A stretch of 64,000 nt of DNA from Dictyostelium discoideum. Taxonomy: Eukaryota. Numbering within the stretch: the first letter of the stretch is position 1; the number at the start of each line of letters is the position of its first letter. This document shows, in pieces, positions 1 through 62,752 of the stretch. The notes beneath the pieces were generated by a model. The model ran no database searches. It worked only from the letters and a program-made list of their open reading frames with translations, and was not told the origin of the DNA. Made by a program: the position numbers and the translations under genes. The DNA lies in contig CM000153.2 in the NCBI GenBank assembly GCA_000004695.1, positions 3,136,001 through 3,200,000 of the forward strand. The letters are read 5' to 3'.

Positions 1-6138
<6,138 letters not shown>

Positions 6139-6184
6139 TTTATTGGTAATAATATAAATTGGATTTGATTGGAATGGTGTGTTG

Positions 6185-6235
<51 letters not shown>

Positions 6236-6276
6236 AAAAAAAAAAAATTGAAAATCAAAAAAAAAAATTGAAAACC

Positions 6277-6313
<37 letters not shown>

Positions 6314-16729: not shown

Positions 16730-17630
16730 TTAATTTTTAATTAAAACAGGTAAATAATAAGTAATCATTATATCAGTTAATACAACATGAACAATTATTG
16801 AACGTTCATAAAGACATAAAACAACTTCACTAGGTTTTAGTTGATGTATATGGAGTACTTTTGCAAACTTTTTAATATCAACACAAACGGTTGCTTGTAA
16901 ATCTGGTGATAAAACATGATCACCAAATTGTGGATGATCTAAACCACTATAAAATGTACTGATTGAACCAGAACTAGTTTCAACTTCAAATGATAACCGA
17001 TTGTTCATTGCTATCATAATCTTTAAACAATCTGAAATATTCTTCATTTTATCAATTACTTTTTGTAAATTCTTTAGATTTGGTAATAGAATATGTACCA
17101 ATGGATCTGGTAATGTGGGTTCATTAATTTGTGCCATTTGTTGTGCAGTTAAAAGAACAATTGGTATATCTTGAAAGATTACTGTACCACTTGTACCACT
17201 CTTTATTATAAAATGTAAAACTGGTCCACCCCTAACTTTAGTTAAATTTGTAAAAATATCACTTACTCCATTTGAAGTTGCTGATTGTAATACACGACGT
17301 AAACTTTCTAAATCCAATTGAAATTGAATTTCATTGTCACTCAATGATTCTATTGTAAAGTTTTCAAATATTAAACTTCTTTGAATTTCACAAAAAACTT
17401 GCATTCCATCATTAAAATCACTCTGTATAATGAATCTTAATTTATCTGGTGTTATATGACAAATACATTCATTATAAATTTTCATTATATTTTGAACTGT
17501 CTCTGTAAAATTTTTAAAAAAAAAAAAAATAATAATAATATTAGTTAACATATAAAACTTTAGGAGTATTAATAAATATTAACTTACTTAAAAGTATTGA
17601 TGCTTTTGAAATCTTTGCTTTAAATTTCAT
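16730..17630 (-). CDS. hus1: Checkpoint clamp protein Hus1 (9-1-1 complex). Two exons: 17588..17630 (ATG at 17630) and 16730..17502. Intron 17503..17587 has donor GTAAGT and acceptor TTTTACAG.
   Basis: Exon 1 translates to MKFKAKISKASILL (human HUS1 begins MKFRAKIVDGACL). The joined protein continues ..KTVQNIMKIYNECICHITPDKLRFIIQ (human ..[26 protein letters not shown]). Later segments PDPLVHILLPNLKNLQKVIDKMKNISDCLKIM (human [32 protein letters not shown]) and the C-terminal YYLPVL match Hus1. Confidence 0.8.
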
Positions 17631-18784: not shown

Positions 18785-18874
18785 ATGGTATCACCAAGTA
18801 CTAAATCAAATGATGGTACTGTACCATCATTAACAAACAACAACAATAATGGTATTTTTATTTTTAATATTCTA

Positions 18875-18906
<32 letters not shown>

Positions 18907-20380
18907 CCTAATATTTTATTTTTTATAATTTATTTATATAGTTAATAATAATAATAATTTAAATATAGAAATGCCAACATTATCATTAAAAATGGCAAAT
19001 GATTTATTATTAGAGATGGAAAATTTTATAAAGACAGATTTAGCAATGTTAGAGAAATTTTATACAACAGATTATAGGGATGTACCACATGAAAGGGCAA
19101 TAAATAAAGCAAAAAGAAAATTTGAAAAGAGGAGAGGACCATTATTAATTAAACCATTGAATAAAACTAAAAAGAAGATGGTAGTTGGTGAAATGGAATA
19201 TGATCCAAGATCACAAGTTTGGAAAGGTAATTATAATGATTTGAATGCATTCCCAAACCCACCAGCACTTATCACAAATATGGGTGTCAAGACTGATGAA
19301 TCGATGAAATTGGGTAACATGAAATGGGATCCAAATCAAAAGGAGTGGAAAGGTAATGAAGGTGATTTAACCAAATTTAGATTCTTAAAGCCTGCACTCA
19401 TTAGTCAGTTAACACCAAATTTGGATAGTCGTGTCGAGAATGGTATGATCTATGATCCTATCGCAATGAAATGGAAAGGTAATGAAGATGCATTGGATGT
19501 CTTTGAAACAATGGATGATCAAAACAATGATAATACCTTTACCGTTGGTAAAGAGTTTAATTTAACACCATCTTTAATCGCTTCCTTCAAGAAATCCTCA
19601 GAAGCTCACACTAAACAATTAAGTGGTTGGTTTGAAAATAGAGATCTCATTGATAGGGAATATTTGTATAGTATTAGATCAATGTCAATTATCAAATTGG
19701 TTAAATCTGCCTCTTACACAGGCCATGGTAATAATTCTGGATCTGCAAATGGTTCAGGCTCTAGTAGTGGTGGTGGTGCTTCTAATCATCAACCATCATC
19801 ACCTGGTGGTTCAGGTATTATTCCTTTAATACCATCAAAAAAGAAACCAGTTATCGATGAAACTAAAGATTGGGATGATATCGATTTTCAAGAGAAGCCT
19901 GCACTCAAATTAAATTTAAAGATTCATCACGATGCTGAAGATGAAAGAATGATGGCAATGAATGATGAACCAAATTGGGATAAAGAAATGGGTTTCACCT
20001 CTGAAGAGGAAACTTTATCATCAAATAATGAAAATGGTGGTCAATTATCTTCTTCATCACAACCTCATACCCCAAGAAAAACTGTTGAAGAATGGTCCGA
20101 TTTTGATAACACAATGAACTCTACTATCACTGGTAAAATCACACAATTAAATAAAAAAGATAGTAATCTAAATGGTACAAGTAATAGTAGTTTAGGTAAT
20201 CTAATTAATTTCAGTGGTGGTAATATTAGTAATAGTAGTGGTGGTGGTGGTGGTGGTGGTGGTGGTGGTAATAATCCAAAATCATCAGATGATGAAGATT
20301 TTGATTGGACTGGTAATAATACTTTAACAAGTGTAACACTTTCTGGTACATTATATAATAATAATAACAATAATAATAAC

Positions 20381-20465
<85 letters not shown>

Positions 20466-21637
20466 TCAACAACAATAATAATAATAGTGGTAGTATTAAA
20501 TCTAAAAAAGGTGGTAGTCTTAAAGGTGTTTTCATTGGAAATAGTGGATCAATTAGACCTAAAAAGACATCAGATAAATTAAAACGTGGTGGTACATTTG
20601 GTAATATTCAATCATTAGCCGCAGCAATGGCATCAAATACACCATTAAGCTCTAGTAGTAGTACAGTTGCAGGTGGTAATGTTAATGATCTCTATGATGA
20701 TGTTTTCCCAGTGCCAAATGGTTCAGTATTTACCCTTAGAAATAAACCACATGAAGATAACTTTGAAATGTTTTTAGAGAGTAGTAATGGTATTTCAAGT
20801 CCAAAGGATGAACCTTGTGATGAAACTATGAAATTCTTTGAGAGTGAAAAAGATGTTTTCGAAGAGGATTGGCCTGATGTGCGTGTACCAGCTGATTTAG
20901 GTCAAAAGAAATCTCACGAAAGTAGAAAATCACCACCAATCAAAAATAATCTCGTAGAGGATTACTCTGATGAATTGGATATGCCAAAGGTTAGTCAACC
21001 ACTTCAATTGAAAAAACATACTCTCATTGATAATCCATTTGGTGATGATGATGATGTTGGTTTCGAAAATGATAATGATTTTGATTGGGATGATGTATCT
21101 TTCCCTGAAAATCCTTCACAATTAATTTCCTCAACCTCAAAACTTTCAAAACCAATACCTGTTACTGCAAACTCTTCAAATACAACTTCAACCACCACAA
21201 CAACCACAACTACAACATCAAGTAATATTATAATAAATAATATAAAACAAACTAATAATAATAATATTTTTACACCATCAAAAATTAATAATATAAAACC
21301 AACGTTAACACCACAACAAAACTCAAATAATAATTTTAATTTCCAAACTCCTTCATCAACACCATTCCGACCAATTTTCACAAAAAATTTAGATGGTGAT
21401 AATAATAATAATATAAATAATATAAATAATAATAATAGCGCTAATAATACTTTACCAACACCATCAAAAATTAATAATATAAAACCAATGTCAACACCTC
21501 AAAATGTAACACATTTCACTTTCCAAACACCAAATACAACTCCATTCAAACCAACCTATAAACCTAAAAGTGTTATCGAGATTATGAACTCCGATTCTCC
21601 ACCTCCTTCTTTTGAATCTGATAAAAGAAATGTATAA
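18785..21637 (+). CDS. Protein with three tandem about 45-aa repeats (motif M-x-[YW]-DP-x4-W-K-G-N) followed by long low-complexity S/N/T-rich sequence. Candidate Byr4/Bfa1-like (GAP co-factor) repeat protein; family uncertain. Two exons: 18785..18851 and 18969..21637; intron 18852..18968 (GTATTT...TATAG).
   Basis: Exon 1 is MVSPSTKSNDGTVPSLTNNNNN, joined in frame (G+AA gives E) to MPTLSLKMANDLLLEMENFIKTDLAMLEKFY... The repeats are MEYDPRSQVWKGNYNDLNAFPNPPALITNMG, MKWDPNQKEWKGNEGDLTKFRFLKPALISQL and MIYDPIAMKWKGNEDALDVFETMDD. A 40-residue poly-N is encoded by (AAT)n at 20345..20465. The ORF itself is solid; the Byr4/Bfa1 assignment is from memory of that family's imperfect repeats and is low confidence. 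Confidence 0.7.
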
Positions 21638-21818: not shown

Positions 21819-24800
21819 AATACATCTTTGTTAAATAAGTGTACGTCATAGAATTCTGCTTTAATGCAATGATAACTAAAATATTTTCCATTTAATTTTG
21901 ACTGACAAGCCATGCCAGAATAAAGATCTTTAAATAAAATATATACTTTTACACTTTGACTATCAGATTTAATAACTAACTTTTCAATTTCACCAAATTC
22001 ATTACATCCTGATCTAATATCATCTTCAAATGATGAGTCTATATCATCTGGTGATCCTGCATTCTTTAAAACTAAACATCTCTATGATTGAAAAAAAAAA
22101 AAAAAAAAGGGATTGGTTAAATATACTTTTTTTTTAAAAAAAGAAGAATAAGTAATATTACTTACTGATGGTTGAGTTGTATCACTTCCCAAAAGTTTTT
22201 GTGTTAGTTGAATTCTTTGCTCAGAGGTTAAGGATGGCTCATTCTCTAAAAATGTTGTTTTATCAACAATATTACCATTATTGAAAATATTATTGTTGTT
22301 ATTATTATTAATATTATTATTATTAGTGTTAGTGTTATTATTATTGTTATTATTATTATTATTATTATTAATATTATTATTAATATTATTGTTATTATTA
22401 TTATTATTGGTGTTGTTGTTATTGTTAATACTATTATTATTGTTATTATTATTGTTCGAACTTTTTGTGGGTCTGCCAACCTTAATTGATCTACCTAATA
22501 ACTCAAATCCATTCATAGTAGCAATTGCATCATCGGCAGATTTCTTCAATTCAAAGTCAACGAATCCAAAACCTTTATGTTTACCTGTGTCTGCATTTTG
22601 CTAGAAAAAAAAAAAAAAAAAAAAGAAAATTAACAAATGTATAAATAATAATATAACAATGATAATATTAACATACCATTAAAAAGCAAGAAATGACTCT
22701 TCCAAATTGACTAAAAATACTTCTAACTTGATCTTCAGTAACATTCCAATTAATTGAACCGATATATATTCTGCTTGCTTCATTAATTGGAACTGGTGGA
22801 GCTGATTCATTTGGCTTTGGAACATCTGGTGTTGGATGTTGAGGTGGATGATGAGATTGTGATAAAATTGGGTGCTGTTGTTGTTGTTGCTGCTGTGGTT
22901 GTTGTGTGTGATGTGGTAAAAGTGATTGGTGATGAATTTGTAATGGTTGTTGTTGTTGTTGTTGTTGTTGTGGTTGTTGTTGCTGTACAGGGGGTTGAAT
23001 TTGTTGGTGGTTTGGTGATAATAATATTTGTTGTTGTTGCTGTTGTTGTTGTTGCTGTTGTTGTTGTTGATGGCTTCCAGTCCCAGTAAAAGGACGGGCC
23101 ACTTTTATAGCTCTTCCACACATTACATAGTTTGTCATACTTTGTAATGCTTTTGCCGCTGATTCTTGATTATCATACTCTATGAATGCATATCCTTTAG
23201 ATTTTCCACTTGCATCTTTACCTAAAGCAAGTGATTTTATATTACCAAACACAGAGAATGTTGCTCTTATAACATCTTCTGTTAAACTAAAATGTAAACT
23301 ACCAACATAAATCCTAGATTGATCTTGTGATGTTGATTGATTTAATGTTGGTGGTATTGGTGTTGTTGTTGTTGTTGGTTGAATAATTGTTGTTGATGGA
23401 GATGTCGGTATTGATGAAAAAATTTGTGTTTGGTGATGATGTAATTGATGTGGTGGTTGTTGAAGTGGTGTTGCTGTTTGTATAACTGGTGCACCAATTT
23501 GAGGTTTAAATTGAGATGATGGTGATGAAATAGGATTCTCACTTGGTTTTACTGTAAAAGTTGTTATTGTAGGAGAGGCTTGCAATGTTGTATTCTTATT
23601 TTCAGCTAAAAAAAAAAAAAAAAAAAAAAAATTAATACCCTATTATCAATTACTTTAATAAGTTGGGAAAAAAAAAAAGTGGAAAAAAAAAAAAAAAAGT
23701 GGAAAAAAAAAAAAAAAAGTGGAAAAAAAAAAAAAAAGTGGAAAAAAATAAAAAAGTGGGAAAAAAAATAAAAAAGTGGAAAAAAATAAAAAAGTGGAAA
23801 AAAAAATAATAATAAAGAAAGGAGATAAATAAAATTGTAAAAATAATAATAAAAAAAAGAAAAGAGAGAAATAAAAATTAAAAAAATAAAAAATAAAAAC
23901 ATTGATATCAAATATTAATATGAATAAAAAAAAGAAAATATAAAGCAAAAAACAAATCACTTTTAATTCTCTCTCTCTCTCCTCTTTGCCCATATCTTTG
24001 CTATTATTAATGAAAATAAAACTAATAATTAAAAGAGAGACTATGGCGAAGAACTTACAATTTGAAGATTCACTTGGGAGATTATCCCAACCAGATGATT
24101 TTCTTTTTGAAGAAAGACTTCTACTTCTATCTCTTGATCTACCTCTTTTTTTTCTTGATCTTCCATTACTATTTGATCTTGATCTTGATTTACTTCTATC
24201 AGTTGTTTTAGTACGTTTTGGTGATCTATCTCTCCTTCTTCCGCCAGCACCAGCTGATTTACTTCTTGAACGTGATCTACTAATATCCATTCTACTACTT
24301 TTAGTATCTCTATTACTTTTAGTGGTACTTCTTGAACGTGACCTGCTTGATTTATGTTTTCTACCACTGCTTCTTGAACGTGATCTACTTTTACTCTTTG
24401 ATCTACTTGATCTATTTCTAAACTTTTTTGAAGATCTTCTACTATCACTTCCAACATCTGATGAATTATAACTACTACGACGTCTATAATACCTATCACT
24501 ACGTTTTCTATCCCTTGATCTTGACCTTGATTTTGTTCTTGATCTTGACCTTGATTTTGATTTTGATTTTGATCTTGATCTACTCTTTGATCTTCGCTTA
24601 TCTTTTGATGTTAATGATTTGTTATTATTACTACTACTACTATTATTATTATTATTATTATAATGTGATTTCTTTCTATCCCTTGATTTTGATCTTGACC
24701 TTGATCTTGACCTACTATTTTTATGTGTCGTTGATGTAGTTGGAATTGCTGATGTTGTTTGATTTGTGTTGTTGTTACCATTACTACTACTCTTTTTATG

Positions 24801-58806: not shown

Positions 58807-61134
58807 ATGTCACATGAAGATAGAGGTGGTGACTACTATCCAATGATGGACGATCCAGAGGATAGAAATTTTATACAAGCAAAATATCCAAACTCAACAG
58901 GTCATATGTCAAGTGGTGGTGGTAGTAATCATATGTCATTTGATGATAACCATGGTATAGAAATGTTAAGAGATGATGAACATTCTCTTTTACATGAATC
59001 ACCTGTGTCAATTCCAGCAATTCACAATTTAGATAGTTTTTTAACAGATGTTTACAATTATTTTCGTGGTAAAGGTTTTATGTGTATATTTTTTAATGAC
59101 CTTTTCGAATTAGTGTATGTATATATATATATATAAAAATAGTTAAAATAAAAAATACTAATTATTATTATTTTTTAGTTCATCATTATTTGTTGTTTTA
59201 TTTTTCACATTTTTAGTATGTTTTGTAGATTATAGTAAATTATTTTCAGAGCAGATGCCTCCACCAGCATTAAGAGAGTCTGTCAATTTTTCAGCACCAA
59301 TACCAATTTGGTTAATGGTATTTTTAGTGATATTTTCATTATATTGGTTAAGTAAATTATTTTCATTCTTTTCTAGTATTAAAACCAATTGGGAAATTAG
59401 TAGTTTTTATAAAAACACTTTAAAGATTAATGAAGATGATATTCAAACAATAGAATGGAGAGAAGTTGTTTCAAAGATCGTTTTAGTACCAAGACTATGC
59501 ATTGTCAAGGAGAATATGAACGCTTTAGATATTGCAAATAGAATTATGAGAAAAGAAAACTATATAATTGGTTTAATCAATCAAAGAATTTTAAATTTAT
59601 CAATACCTTTCCCATTCCTTAGAAATTTAACTTTTATAACTAAAACTTTAGAATGGAGTTTAATGTATTCTTTATTTAATTATATTTTTGATGAAAATGG
59701 TATTATTAAAAGTGAATTTCAAGATCCAACTCAAAGAAAAAGATTATCAAGAGGGTAAATTAATTATAAAAAAAAAAAAAAAAATTAAATTATTTTAAAT
59801 TCTAATTTTATTTTAATTTTTTATTTTAGATTATCACGTAGATTTATGACAATTGGTATATTAGGTTTATTTACAACACCATTTATATTCTTTTTCTTAT
59901 TAATAAACTTTTTCTTTGAATATGCTGAAGAATTAAAGAATAGACCAGGTTCATTATTTAGTAGAGAATGGTCACCTTTGGCACGTTGGGAATTTAGAGA
60001 ATTAAATGAGTTACCTCATTATTTTCAAAATAGATTAAATCTTAGTTACTCTCATGCTAATCAATATGTTGAGAGTTTTCCATCACAAATGTTATCAACA
60101 ATTGCAAAATTCATTAGTTTCTTATTTGGTTCAGTTTTGGCAGTTTTCATTGTTTTGGGTATTGTCAGTGATCACTTTATAATGAATTATCAAATCTTTG
60201 ATAGAACCCCAATTTGGTATATTGGTATTTTAGGTACAATCGTTGCAATTACTCGTTCATTGATTGTTGATGAGAATCAAGTTTTTCAACCAGCTAAACA
60301 TATGGCAAGAACTGTTCAAAACACTCATTATCTTCCAATGAGTTGGGTCGGTAAAACTCATACTCATAAGGTACGTGACGAATTTTTGGTACTCTTTGAA
60401 TATAGAATCGTTGATTTCGTTAGGGATATCTTTTCAGTTCTCTTTACACCATTCATTTTAATATTTTCTTTACCAAAATCTTCACAAGCCATCATTGACT
60501 TTTTTGGAAACAATACAGTGGTTTTAGAAGGTGTTGGTCCAATTTGTCAATTGGGTGATTTTTCAAACATTAGAAAATTGGGTGATAATTCATTTGGTTC
60601 ATTAAATCATTCTCAAAATAAAATTAGTTTAACAAATAATGCAAAATTAGAGAAATCAATTATAAACTTTAAATGTTTAAATCCAGAATGGAATACTGAT
60701 AATAATGAATTACTTCAAAATCTTAATGAATTTTCAAAGATAAAGAATAATAATAATAATAATAATAATAATGGTAGCAATAATCATATTGGTAATCATT
60801 CTCAACTTCCAACAACTTCAGTAGATGATTTCCAATTTATTCATGATAGTCATTATATTCCTCATGAAATTATTGATGCCGTTTTGGGTACACATCATCA
60901 TTCTCAACAATCCAATAACAATGCTCCAAGATTTAAAACTGGAAGAGTCGACCAAAATATTTTAAACGCTGTCAACGATGTAAGTTTAACTTTTTTAAAA
61001 AAAAATTAACAAAATTATATATATAATAAATATTTATTAACTTTTTTTTTTTTTTTTTTTTTTTATAGCTCCATCAATCATTTTATGAATCCCAATATAA
61101 ACATAAAAATGATAACTTTGTAAATTCAATTTAG
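58807..61134 (+). CDS. atg9: Autophagy-related protein 9 (Atg9; lipid scramblase), about 674 aa. Four exons: 58807..59112, 59252..59754, 59830..60979 and 61069..61134. Introns: GTGTAT..CAGAG, GTAAAT..TTTTAG, GTAAGT..TTTATAG.
   Basis: Atg9 core: LDSFLTDVYNYFRGKGFMCIFFNDLFEL | QMPPPALRESVNFSAPIPIWLMVFLVIFSLYWL...EWREVVSKIVLV...DIANRIMRKENYIIGLINQRILNLSIPFPFLRNLTFITKTLEWSLMYSLFNYIFDENGIIKSEF.DPTQRKRLSRG | LSRRFMTIGILGLFTTPFIFFFLLINFFFEYAEELKNRPGSLFSREWSPLARWEFRELNELPHYFQNRLNLSY...YLPMSWVGKTHTHKVRDEFLVLFEYRIVDFVRDIFSVLFTPFILIFSLPKSSQAIIDFFGNNTV. Compare human ATG9A HRILRFQNYMVALVNKSLLPLRF and RDEFAQLFQYKAVFILEELLSPIVTPLILIF. The last 22-codon exon (LHQSFYESQYKHKNDNFVNSI*) is predicted from splice signals only. 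Confidence 0.85.
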
Positions 61135-61398: not shown

Positions 61399-62752
61399 TT
61401 ATAATATTTTTGCTGTAACATCATTGTCAAGATCAGGTTCCATTAATAAAGAAAATTCTTTCGCTAATTTTAATTCACCTCCAACAGATTCATCGAAATT
61501 GTATTGCATATAAAGACTATCAGCTGTTAAAACCATGGCAGTTTTATTATTTTGCATTAGAGCACAAATACTTGGAATACCGGGTGGAATTTTAATGTGT
61601 GCAAAATCTCTTGATGGTTCCCAAACTTGACTAATTACTTCTGGTAAATAAGAACTCATTTTTGAAGTTAATCCACCAAAATTTAAACCCATCATACCTC
61701 CACTCGGTGATGAGGATGGTTGTGCTTGATGAAAAGATGAAGAATTTGAAGAACTGAAATCAATTTTAAATATATGAATTGTACCAGTATCACTCGAAAC
61801 GCACAAATATCTACCATCCAAACTAAATGTCATACTATGAATGATTGCAGGTATTGAACCACGTCTAAATGATAATGATTTATTGGCATAAGGTAAGGCA
61901 AATACACGAATAACCGTACCTTTATCACTTGCTGTTGCCAATAATGTACCATCCTGACTTAATGCTAATGCTGAAATTTGACTCTTATGCGCTTGAATTA
62001 AATTTACTGTCTCTAATGTTAATACATCCATCACTAAAATATTACCATTGTTTTGACTCGCTGGATAAACTATATAATTGGTATTTGAGGGTGATAATGC
62101 ACATAATCCTTTTGGATTTGATGCTATCTCTCTTGTCTCTAATAATTTCATATTATTTATATCATAAATATGTATTTTTGTTTCCATAATAACTACAATT
62201 CTAAATTATTATTATTATTATTATTATTATTATTTATTATTATTACTACTATTAATAATTGTTTGAACCTCTAATTATAATAAATTTAACACCTATCTAT
62301 TTATTTATTTTACAATACCTTTTTCTATTCATTTTTACTGATAAAATCGCTGTTACAAAATTTAAATCGCAAATTGGAATATTATTTTTTATATTATTAA
62401 TTAATAACCTTCTTTGTGATGTATTTCCATCACCTGATCCAACAATTGATACTAAACTAGTTGAAAATAACATTTCAACCAATCCTGCTCCACCATTTGC
62501 TATAAATTATTCAATAATAATTGTTTTTTTTTTTTTTTTTTTTTATACTTTGTTAGAATCTTTTTACTTTTTTTAAAAAAAATAAAATAATATTGCTATT
62601 TACATATTTTACCTACATTGACTATAATATAATGTATATGGATCAGAATTGAAAATTTTATAACCTTCTGGTGTACCAACTGCAATACAACTAAAATCTT
62701 GATTAAAATTTAAAAATAATATACCTTCATTGAATTTACCTCCAACATTCAT
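61399..62752 (-). CDS. WIPI/PROPPIN beta-propeller protein of the WDR45 / WDR45B (WIPI4/WIPI3) type, about 370 aa. Three exons: 62617..62752 (ATG at 62752), 62314..62499 and 61399..62192. Introns are 62500..62616 (GTAGGT..TTTATAG) and 62193..62313 (GTAAAA..TTGTAG).
   Basis: Joined protein: MNVGGKFNEGILFLNFNQDFSCIAVGTPEGYKIFNSDPYTLYYSQ-S-NGGAGLVEMLFSTSLVSIVGSGDG..RRLLINNIKNNIPICDLNFVTAILSVKMNRKRY-F-IMETKIHIYDINNMKLLETREIASNPKGLCALS...LATASDKGTVIRVFALPYANKSLSFRRGS (the FRRG phosphoinositide-binding motif). The C-terminus is ..SLYMQYNFDESVGGELKLAKEFSLL. This is collinear with WIPI proteins (LNRQRLIV.LEESLYIHNIRDMKVLHTI; LATASEKGTVIRVFSIP..LFEFRRG). Confidence 0.85.

Follow-up and report, generated by a model that had tools for sequence, protein, structure and literature searches.

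Bfa1, Byr4 and a related gene in Dictyostelium

In budding yeast Bfa1 and Bub2 constitute a GTPase-activating protein (GAP) of two components, which acts on Tem1 and serves the mitotic exit network (MEN) and the spindle position checkpoint, and in the septation initiation network (SIN) of fission yeast Byr4 and Cdc16 constitute the GAP that acts on Spg1. Spg1/Tem1 is the small GTPase that sets off septation, cytokinesis and mitotic exit, and the repeats of Byr4 and Bfa1 are reported to bind it directly. Dictyostelium is the main model outside yeasts and animals for cytokinesis and centrosome biology, and to our knowledge the Spg1 GTPase and the SepA kinase are the only components of its SIN-like pathway that are known. 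We analyzed a 64,000-nucleotide stretch of Dictyostelium discoideum DNA (positions 3,136,001 to 3,200,000 of contig CM000153.2; the whole stretch is called the window below) that contains a two-exon gene, 18785..21637 on the (+) strand, whose spliced product of 920 amino acids (aa) belongs with very little doubt to the Byr4/Bfa1 family and is probably the dictyostelid Byr4/Bfa1 orthologue, that is, the non-catalytic subunit of a two-component Spg1/Tem1 GAP. The literature that we searched holds no report of a Byr4/Bfa1 homologue in Dictyostelium or Amoebozoa; an assignment in dictyBase, InterPro or PANTHER may exist.

Bfa1 and Byr4 are homologues (PMC3257293, PMC6222586). DR1 and DR2 of Bfa1 are imperfect direct repeats with strong conservation across fungi (PMC3257293, citing Kim et al. 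2008), and the Bfa1-D8 fragment (residues 391-574, the C-terminal 184 residues with DR2 and the terminal block) is enough for MEN inhibition and for spindle pole body (SPB) localisation (PMC3257293). The W422A change almost abolishes the GAP activity of Bfa1/Bub2 on Tem1, M413I and D416A markedly reduce it, and Bfa1 G411E/M413I/D416A/W422A has no GAP activity and does not prevent mitotic exit (PMC3257293); these residues form the repeat core G411-N-M413-I-L-D416-E-Q-N-L-R-W422. The Bub2-Bfa1 complex binds specifically to Tem1-GTP (PMC11118470). Byr4 is a scaffold that links Spg1 to the GAP Cdc16 and that, without Cdc16, blocks both GTP release and GTP hydrolysis, and the SPB localisation of Byr4 and that of Cdc16 are mutually dependent (PMC3044818, PMC6222586).

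The N-terminal module and its relatives

How does the Dictyostelium protein compare with these? It carries near its N-terminus three M-x-[YW]-D-P-x4-W-K-G-N cores, spaced exactly 42 aa (126 nt) apart, just as the first-pass annotation of this DNA had quoted them, and there are no further copies of the core elsewhere in the window in any of the six frames. The cores lie in a full repeat unit of 42 aa that reads P-A-L-I-x-N, a short linker and V-G-x-M-x-[YW]-D-P-x4-W-K-G-N-E-x-x-L-x-x-F, and the third unit is followed by an acidic segment (D-P-F / D-V-F ... D-D-L in the fungal counterparts) and by a terminal conserved block. The parts of this module are as follows:

19193-19231 (+): core 1, at aa 107, MEYDPRSQVWKGN
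19319-19357 (+): core 2, at aa 149, MKWDPNQKEWKGN
19445-19483 (+): core 3, at aa 191, MIYDPIAMKWKGN
19136..19261 (+): repeat unit 1, aa 88-129, DR1-type, GPLLIKPLNKTKKKMVVGEMEYDPRSQVWKGNYNDLNAFPNP
19262..19387 (+): repeat unit 2, aa 130-171, DR1-type, pairs with fungal DR1 in the profile alignment (below), PALITNMGVKTDESMKLGNMKWDPNQKEWKGNEGDLTKFRFL
19388..19513 (+): repeat unit 3, aa 172-213, DR2-type, KPALISQLTPNLDSRVENGMIYDPIAMKWKGNEDALDVFETM
19484..19534 (+): acidic D-x-F...DD segment after the DR2-type repeat, aa 204-220
19535..19702 (+): terminal conserved block, aa 221-276, predicted helical hairpin, FTVGKEFNLTPS...H...GWF...DREYLYSIRSMSIIKLV

Two marks of the family were looked for in this region and both are there: a core of the G-x-M-x-[YF]-[DN]-P-x4-W-x-G-N type, in three copies, and after the repeats the series F-x-V-G-x-E-F ... 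W ... L-Y-x-I-R-x-M. Each of the three repeats has the GAP-critical methionine, aspartate and tryptophan (M107/D110/W116, M149/D152/W158 and M191/D194/W200), those of repeat 3 being the counterparts of Bfa1 M413, D416 and W422, and the glycine equivalent to Bfa1 G411 is at position -2 in repeats 1 and 2 (R1 and R2) and at position -1 in repeat 3 (R3).

The relatives of the module were sought with phmmer by an exhaustive comparison of the N-terminal 251 aa with 1.84 billion representative sequences. This gave 178 matches at E<=1e-3, 36 of them at E<=1e-10, and the core M-x-[YFW]-[DN]-P-x4-W-x-G-N is found in nearly all of the 150 matches listed of these 178. The matches fall into two architectural groups. 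The first has the module near the N-terminus, and its named members are all Amoebozoa and are all labelled hypothetical or uncharacterized; there are three cores in those from dictyostelids and protostelids, and in Pelomyxa two were found. Identity is 64-73% for the Polysphondylium, Tieghemostelium and Heterostelium orthologues and 37-44% for Protostelium, Planoprotostelium and unnamed relatives. The members of the second group are 550-850 aa long with two cores at the extreme C-terminus, and those with names are all Fungi (chytrids, Geosiphon, Conidiobolus, Massospora, Lipomyces, Yarrowia, Trichomonascus, Sugiyamaella and Neolecta). Three of the phmmer matches bear the family's name in their source records, namely 'Bfa1p' of Trichomonascus (E 6.8e-10) and of Sugiyamaella (1.2e-9) and 'Protein byr4' of Neolecta (7.7e-7). 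In the reverse direction, tblastn of the named fungal proteins against the window found only this gene, with E values of 1e-11 to 1e-7 when scaled to genome size (1.1e-7 for the Neolecta 'Protein byr4'). The amoebozoan orthologues are:

Dictyostelids: Polysphondylium violaceum KAF2077779.1; Tieghemostelium lacteum KYQ96895.1; Heterostelium album XP_020427984.1
Other Amoebozoa: Planoprotostelium fungivorum PRP89184.1; a Protostelium nocturnum transcript; Pelomyxa schiedti KAH3757605.1

Like the Dictyostelium protein, these orthologues have an N-terminal module, the dictyostelids and protostelids also have its three cores and the same terminal block, and the dictyostelids have in addition the conserved islands of its long C-terminal tail (below); the tails of the amoebozoan orthologues vary in length and in low-complexity content.

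The two groups were compared directly by aligning an Amoebozoa-only profile (alignment A2) with a Fungi-only profile (alignment A3) in hhalign, which gave Prob 99.9 and E 9.2e-34 over 145 colinear columns at 33% identity. Amoebozoan repeat 2 aligns with DR1 and repeat 3 with DR2, and the correspondence runs on in the same order through the acidic D-x-F, F-x-V-G-x-E-F, the conserved H/W positions and the terminal L-Y-x-I-R-x-M, so that the terminal block and the extreme C-terminal end of fungal Bfa1/Byr4 are colinear. The amoebozoan profile also aligns with S. cerevisiae Bfa1 residues 311-574 (Prob 97.3, E 2.7e-11, 183 columns, from DR1 to YMYEIRNM) and with a database fragment of a Bfa1 relative, P0280 (Prob 96.1). 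The resemblance of the repeats to those of Byr4/Bfa1, which the first-pass annotation had offered as a possibility, is thus borne out by both alignments and by the match of the repeats to DR1 and DR2; the test set beforehand was whether the N-terminal ~200 aa resemble Byr4/Bfa1 at profile level, and phmmer and hhalign both found that they do. The contrary outcome, a confident match to an unrelated repeat family, did not occur.

A typical fungal architecture was not found: the module is N-terminal in the Dictyostelium protein and in the other amoebozoan proteins, not C-terminal. We take C-terminal placement of the module to be a fungal architectural habit and no criterion of homology. The full protein has no match in Pfam-A, and its N-terminal part matches only DotY (E 0.08, 13 bits against a cut-off of 27); S. 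cerevisiae Bfa1 and the named fungal members match no Pfam family either, so Pfam has no model for this family and its silence is uninformative. The sequence comparisons show that the N-terminal ~200-aa module and the functional module at the C-terminus of Bfa1/Byr4 are homologous in each of their blocks. The family is a known one, to which the Dictyostelium protein adds an unannotated member of variant architecture and no new kind of system.

The repeat classes were compared by scoring 30-aa repeat windows. R1 and R2 score 52.9 and 53.3 against DR1, with the highest value, 61.9, for R1 against R2, and the amoebozoan R3 has in common with the DR2 of basal fungi D-P-x-x-M-x-W followed by the acidic D-[VI]-F. 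Since R3 is thus of the DR2 type and R1 and R2 are DR1-like, the amoebozoan layout is DR1a-DR1b-DR2. The mean scores of the repeats are 74.5-82.4 against their own orthologues in other amoebozoans as opposed to 48-62 against their sister repeats, which indicates that the triplication is old and that each copy has been separately constrained. The W-x-G-N of DR2 is kept in Amoebozoa and in early-diverging fungi but is gone in the ascomycete yeasts (W-I-N, W-V-S).

S. cerevisiae Bfa1 and the Dictyostelium protein both have DR1/DR2-type repeats with a core G-x-M-x-x-[DN]-x5-W, and after these Bfa1 has, in the same order as here, the acidic D-P-F, F-x-L-S, a conserved tryptophan and the terminal Y-x-Y-E-I-R-N-M helix; outside its module Bfa1, too, has a long low-complexity region, which is phosphorylated. 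Bfa1 differs in having two repeats, placed C-terminally (DR1 at 347 and DR2 at 413 of 574 residues), and its DR2 is degenerate (M-I-L-D-E...W-V-S), whereas the three repeats of the Dictyostelium protein are intact. S. pombe Byr4, which is essential, likewise has a C-terminal module with two repeats.

An AlphaFold2 model of aa 85-285, built on a multiple sequence alignment of fungal fragments (alignment A4), predicts beta-hairpins at the R1 and R3 cores in which M-x-Y-D pairs with x-W-K (predicted local distance difference test value, pLDDT, ~82 at R1), and in it the terminal block is a confident helical hairpin (construct residues 148-169 and 172-197, pLDDT 81-95). Sequence searches of the PDB gave nothing relevant, whether the query was the single protein or the family profile, from which it follows that there is no solved structure for the Byr4/Bfa1 family.

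Several further matches are recorded here as observations. A word-indexed homologue search with the single sequence had as its sole match P0001, a metagenomic fragment of 141 aa that has two perfect family repeats and the source label 'predicted Holliday junction resolvase-like endonuclease', which is almost certainly a mis-annotation. A family-profile search gave 320 matches, and no names of the founding members occur among the 120 listed, which are all unnamed metagenomic fragments. Two sequences of ~500 aa have their cores in the C-terminal half, two in P0029 and three in P0037 (MVFDPEAMIWKGN / MKFNPKKQKWEGN / MTYDPKSQTWYGN); the three-core C-terminal module of the latter might be a third architecture from another lineage. 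Two proteins of ~1,540-1,590 aa, P0064 and P0147 (E ~1e-8 to 1e-4), were considered as part of a wider repeat family and rejected as bacterial false positives. They are superficial mimics of DPRSQVWKGNYNDLNA, and on inspection P0064 proved to combine a signal peptide with a tandem TETDPQFNAWDKNYNDLTNKP repeat and looks like a bacterial surface protein.

Predicted function in the control of Spg1

Dictyostelium has Spg1 and SepA, the orthologue of Cdc7, at the centrosome, and cytokinesis is impaired in sepA-null cells, where furrowing is delayed or defective (PMC8534566, PMC9016623). From this and from the roles of Byr4 and Bfa1 (above) we propose that the Dictyostelium protein is a co-GAP or scaffold for Spg1, which its homology makes fairly likely. 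The nearer biological analogue is S. pombe Byr4 rather than S. cerevisiae Bfa1, because Dictyostelium has an Spg1 plus Cdc7-like (SepA) module that controls cytokinesis; the budding-related spindle-position checkpoint of the Bfa1 system is not expected in an amoeba. The protein could act as follows: each 42-aa unit would form a short beta-hairpin, in which M-x-Y-D pairs with x-W-K, and dock with it on Spg1 in the GTP-bound form, and the helical hairpin would recruit a Bub2/Cdc16-like TBC GAP. The complex would speed GTP hydrolysis on Spg1 at the centrosome and hold Spg1 inactive until late mitosis, and SepA would thereby be kept until that time from triggering formation of the cleavage furrow. 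If there is no TBC partner, the protein might, as Byr4 does, act in the manner of a guanine nucleotide dissociation inhibitor.

The following points weigh against this reading. The function of the Dictyostelium protein is read from homology, we infer the assignment of the repeats to the GTPase and of the helical hairpin to the TBC partner, and the presence of a Bub2/Cdc16-type TBC partner in this genome is an assumption of the co-GAP model. Compared with the fungal members, the domain order is inverted and there is one extra DR1-type repeat. S. cerevisiae Bfa1 itself finds the gene only weakly in tblastn against the window (E 0.076), a weak pairwise similarity of the kind to be expected from a fast-evolving lineage. 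The S. cerevisiae Bfa1 query did not come from a database record, and it was later validated as follows: it is 574 aa long and its Ser452-454 and Ser559 agree with the phosphosites of PMC3257293, the peptides 150-SMMELKPK and 180-SMPNLALVNPAIR of the same paper are present in it, and the database fragment P0281 corresponds to its residues 181-384 with 200/204 identities (only ~40 within the bait); with this Bfa1 sequence as bait, only the unnamed fragments P0280 and P0281 matched. S. pombe Byr4 was represented by a proxy, the Neolecta 'Protein byr4' (P0095). Finally, the global confidence of the AlphaFold2 model is low (mean pLDDT 66, predicted template modelling score 0.30) and R2 is absent from it, the fungal alignment rows being gapped there; the low global values are consistent with an extended module that would fold on its partners.

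The likeliest alternative is that the protein is a true Byr4/Bfa1 homologue that was repurposed in Amoebozoa for another GTPase or partner and does not control cytokinesis through Spg1 and SepA. An architecture unlike that of the fungi (N-terminal module, three repeats and a long lineage-specific tail with conserved motifs of its own) would fit such a history, the tie between the Dictyostelium protein and Spg1 is one of homology only, and SepA also has non-mitotic roles in adhesion and in Scar/WAVE regulation (PMC9016623). However, the whole functional module is colinear with that of the fungi, including the residues needed for Tem1 GAP activity, and Spg1 and a Cdc7-like kinase are in place at the Dictyostelium centrosome, and we consider repurposing unlikely. 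We give hardly any credence to the idea that the three motifs are a chance or low-complexity product of an AT-rich, repeat-prone genome in an open reading frame (ORF) that encodes no conserved functional protein: the ~22% GC, the many poly-N/poly-Q ORFs and the low-complexity 70% of this protein might suggest it, but in 20,000 shuffles of the first 300 aa not a single core arose (expected count 4e-7), every repeat is separately conserved, and the orthologues in three other dictyostelid genera and in protostelids refute it. It is just as improbable that the repeat belongs to an unrelated family such as DotY or a bacterial cell-surface repeat, since P0064 and P0147 do each match in six stretches and DotY does reach E 0.08, but P0064 lacks the M-x-[YF]-D-P core and all of the flanking blocks and has a signal peptide and a TETDPQFNAWDKNYNDLTN repeat, and DotY, at 13 against 27 bits, is far under its cut-off.

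If the Dictyostelium protein is a Byr4/Bfa1 orthologue, what follows for the family? We lean slightly towards the view that the Byr4/Bfa1-type co-GAP is older than the split between Amoebozoa and Fungi, that in animals it has since disappeared or become too divergent to recognise, that the amoebozoan form is ancestral-looking, and that the protein is the missing negative regulator of Spg1-SepA. That ancestral-looking form, with an intact W-x-G-N in every repeat and a three-hairpin N-terminal module, would then have survived in amoebae, and the extra DR1-type hairpin might allow Spg1 to be captured at the acentriolar centrosome with higher avidity or in a multivalent manner. A two-component GAP that reaches beyond Fungi would bear on the evolution of the upstream module of MEN, SIN and Hippo, and the amoebozoan sequences sharpen the functional unit of the family to a 42-aa P-A-L-I...G-x-M-x-Y-D-P-x4-W-x-G-N hairpin that is followed by a terminal helical hairpin. 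A Byr4/Bfa1 partner would also provide a concrete component of the brake on this pathway to knock out, tag or mutate, with W116, W158 and W200 as targets.

Gene structure, tail and neighbouring genes

Splice signals and reading frame are the sole grounds on which exon 1 and its start codon are placed: from the ATG at 18785, 67 nt of coding sequence run up to a GT donor at 18852, and the frame is preserved across the intron. In the orthologues 10-21 residues precede the conserved N-terminal region. The ORF list contains the gene as an 888-aa ORF that spans 18971..21637 (+), and an exact-product look-up with this ORF gave no match. With its GC content of ~22% and abundant poly-N and poly-Q coding runs, the window is dictyostelid-like. 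The parts of the gene ahead of and around the module are:

18785..18851 (+): exon 1, inferred; ATG, 22 codons and 1 base (MVSPSTKSNDGTVPSLTNNNNN)
18852..18941 (+): intron, 90 nt, GTATTT...TATAG, very AT-rich, with an in-frame stop inside
18942..21637 (+): exon 2, from the ORF list and translation; stop codon at 21635-21637
18971..19135 (+): N-terminal region, aa 33-87, kept among dictyostelids in the four-genus alignment (below), ending in the basic KAKRKFEKRR

A basic stretch is also found directly ahead of DR1 in the fungal relatives. Two antisense ORFs lie within the gene, 20065-20535 (-) of 156 aa and 21004-21381 (-) of 125 aa; they are poly-L/poly-V shadows of the poly-N/poly-T coding and not genes.

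The rest of the protein, 70% of its length, is a low-complexity tail (18% N, 13% S and 8% T), which was aligned with the tails of the Polysphondylium, Tieghemostelium and Heterostelium orthologues. The low-complexity runs proved to be lineage-specific, and the islands between them are conserved across the four dictyostelid genera. The first-pass annotation had given this region as about 700 aa of S/N/T-rich disorder; its S/N/T richness stands, but its length is 637 aa and the conserved islands do not agree with uniform disorder, and the 40-residue poly-N that had been reported there is actually 36 N, one I and 6 N. The features of the tail are:

19703..21634 (+): low-complexity tail with conserved islands, 637 aa
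19850-19936 (+): island VIDETKDWDDIDF..LKLNLK, consensus VIDETxDWDDVDF..LKLNLK
19973-20011 (+): island NWDKEMGFTSEEE, consensus NWDKEMGFTSE[ED]
20066-20104 (+): island HTPRKTVEEWSDF, consensus TPRK.VEEWSDF, a full cyclin-dependent kinase (CDK) site beside an acidic-Trp motif
20240-20269 (+): poly-G run
20357-20485 (+): poly-N run, 36 N + I + 6 N
20807-21052 (+): long island DEP..EEDWPDV..ESRKSPP..VEDYSDEL..LKKH..NPFGDDD
21077-21115 (+): island DFDWDDVSFPENP, consensus DW[DN]DVSFP
21191-21217 (+): poly-T run
21272-21406 and 21458-21592 (+): direct repeat pair of ~45 aa, TPSKINNIKP..TPQ..F.FQTP..TPF[RK]P

There are five acidic W-[DSP]-[DK] motifs in the tail and 17 S/T-P sites in the whole protein, of which five have the full CDK consensus. 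Each of the ~45-aa direct repeats contains four TP sites, full CDK consensus sites among them, and these repeats are partly kept in Polysphondylium. Byr4 leaves the SPBs through Cdk1 phosphorylation at S/T-P sites (PMC4116299), which the S/T-P-rich region of the Dictyostelium protein recalls, and budding-yeast Bfa1 is phosphorylated by Cdc5 and Kin4 in parts that lie outside its repeats (PMC3257293). By analogy, the tail may be a regulatory and targeting region. The conserved acidic-Trp motifs and the clustered S/T-P sites suggest that its 637 aa could take the role of the fungal N-terminal region, namely centrosome targeting and control by CDK and Polo.

The first-pass annotation had also remarked that APC1 and Hus1 are encoded in the same window, and Pfam searches identify both. 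We rejected this neighbourhood as functional support for the present gene, as gene neighbourhood carries no weight in a eukaryote. The two genes are:

3355-6279 (-): APC1 fragment (ANAPC1), Pfam E 9e-22
16730-17551 (-): Hus1 checkpoint-clamp subunit, Pfam E 1.2e-79

Elsewhere in the window an ATG9 fragment, 59846-61009 (+), Pfam E 5e-92, adjoins a PROPPIN/Atg18-WIPI-type beta-propeller protein, 61399-62187 (-), E 5e-43, and the adjacency of these two autophagy genes is probably a coincidence. Just beyond the present gene is an RRM-domain protein, 22082-23585 (-), with two RRM_1 matches (E 3e-26) and long poly-Q tracts; the ORF beside it, 22082-22549, continues with an RRM-like end and poly-N, and the RRM ORFs at 22082-23585 are probably one gene with an intron.

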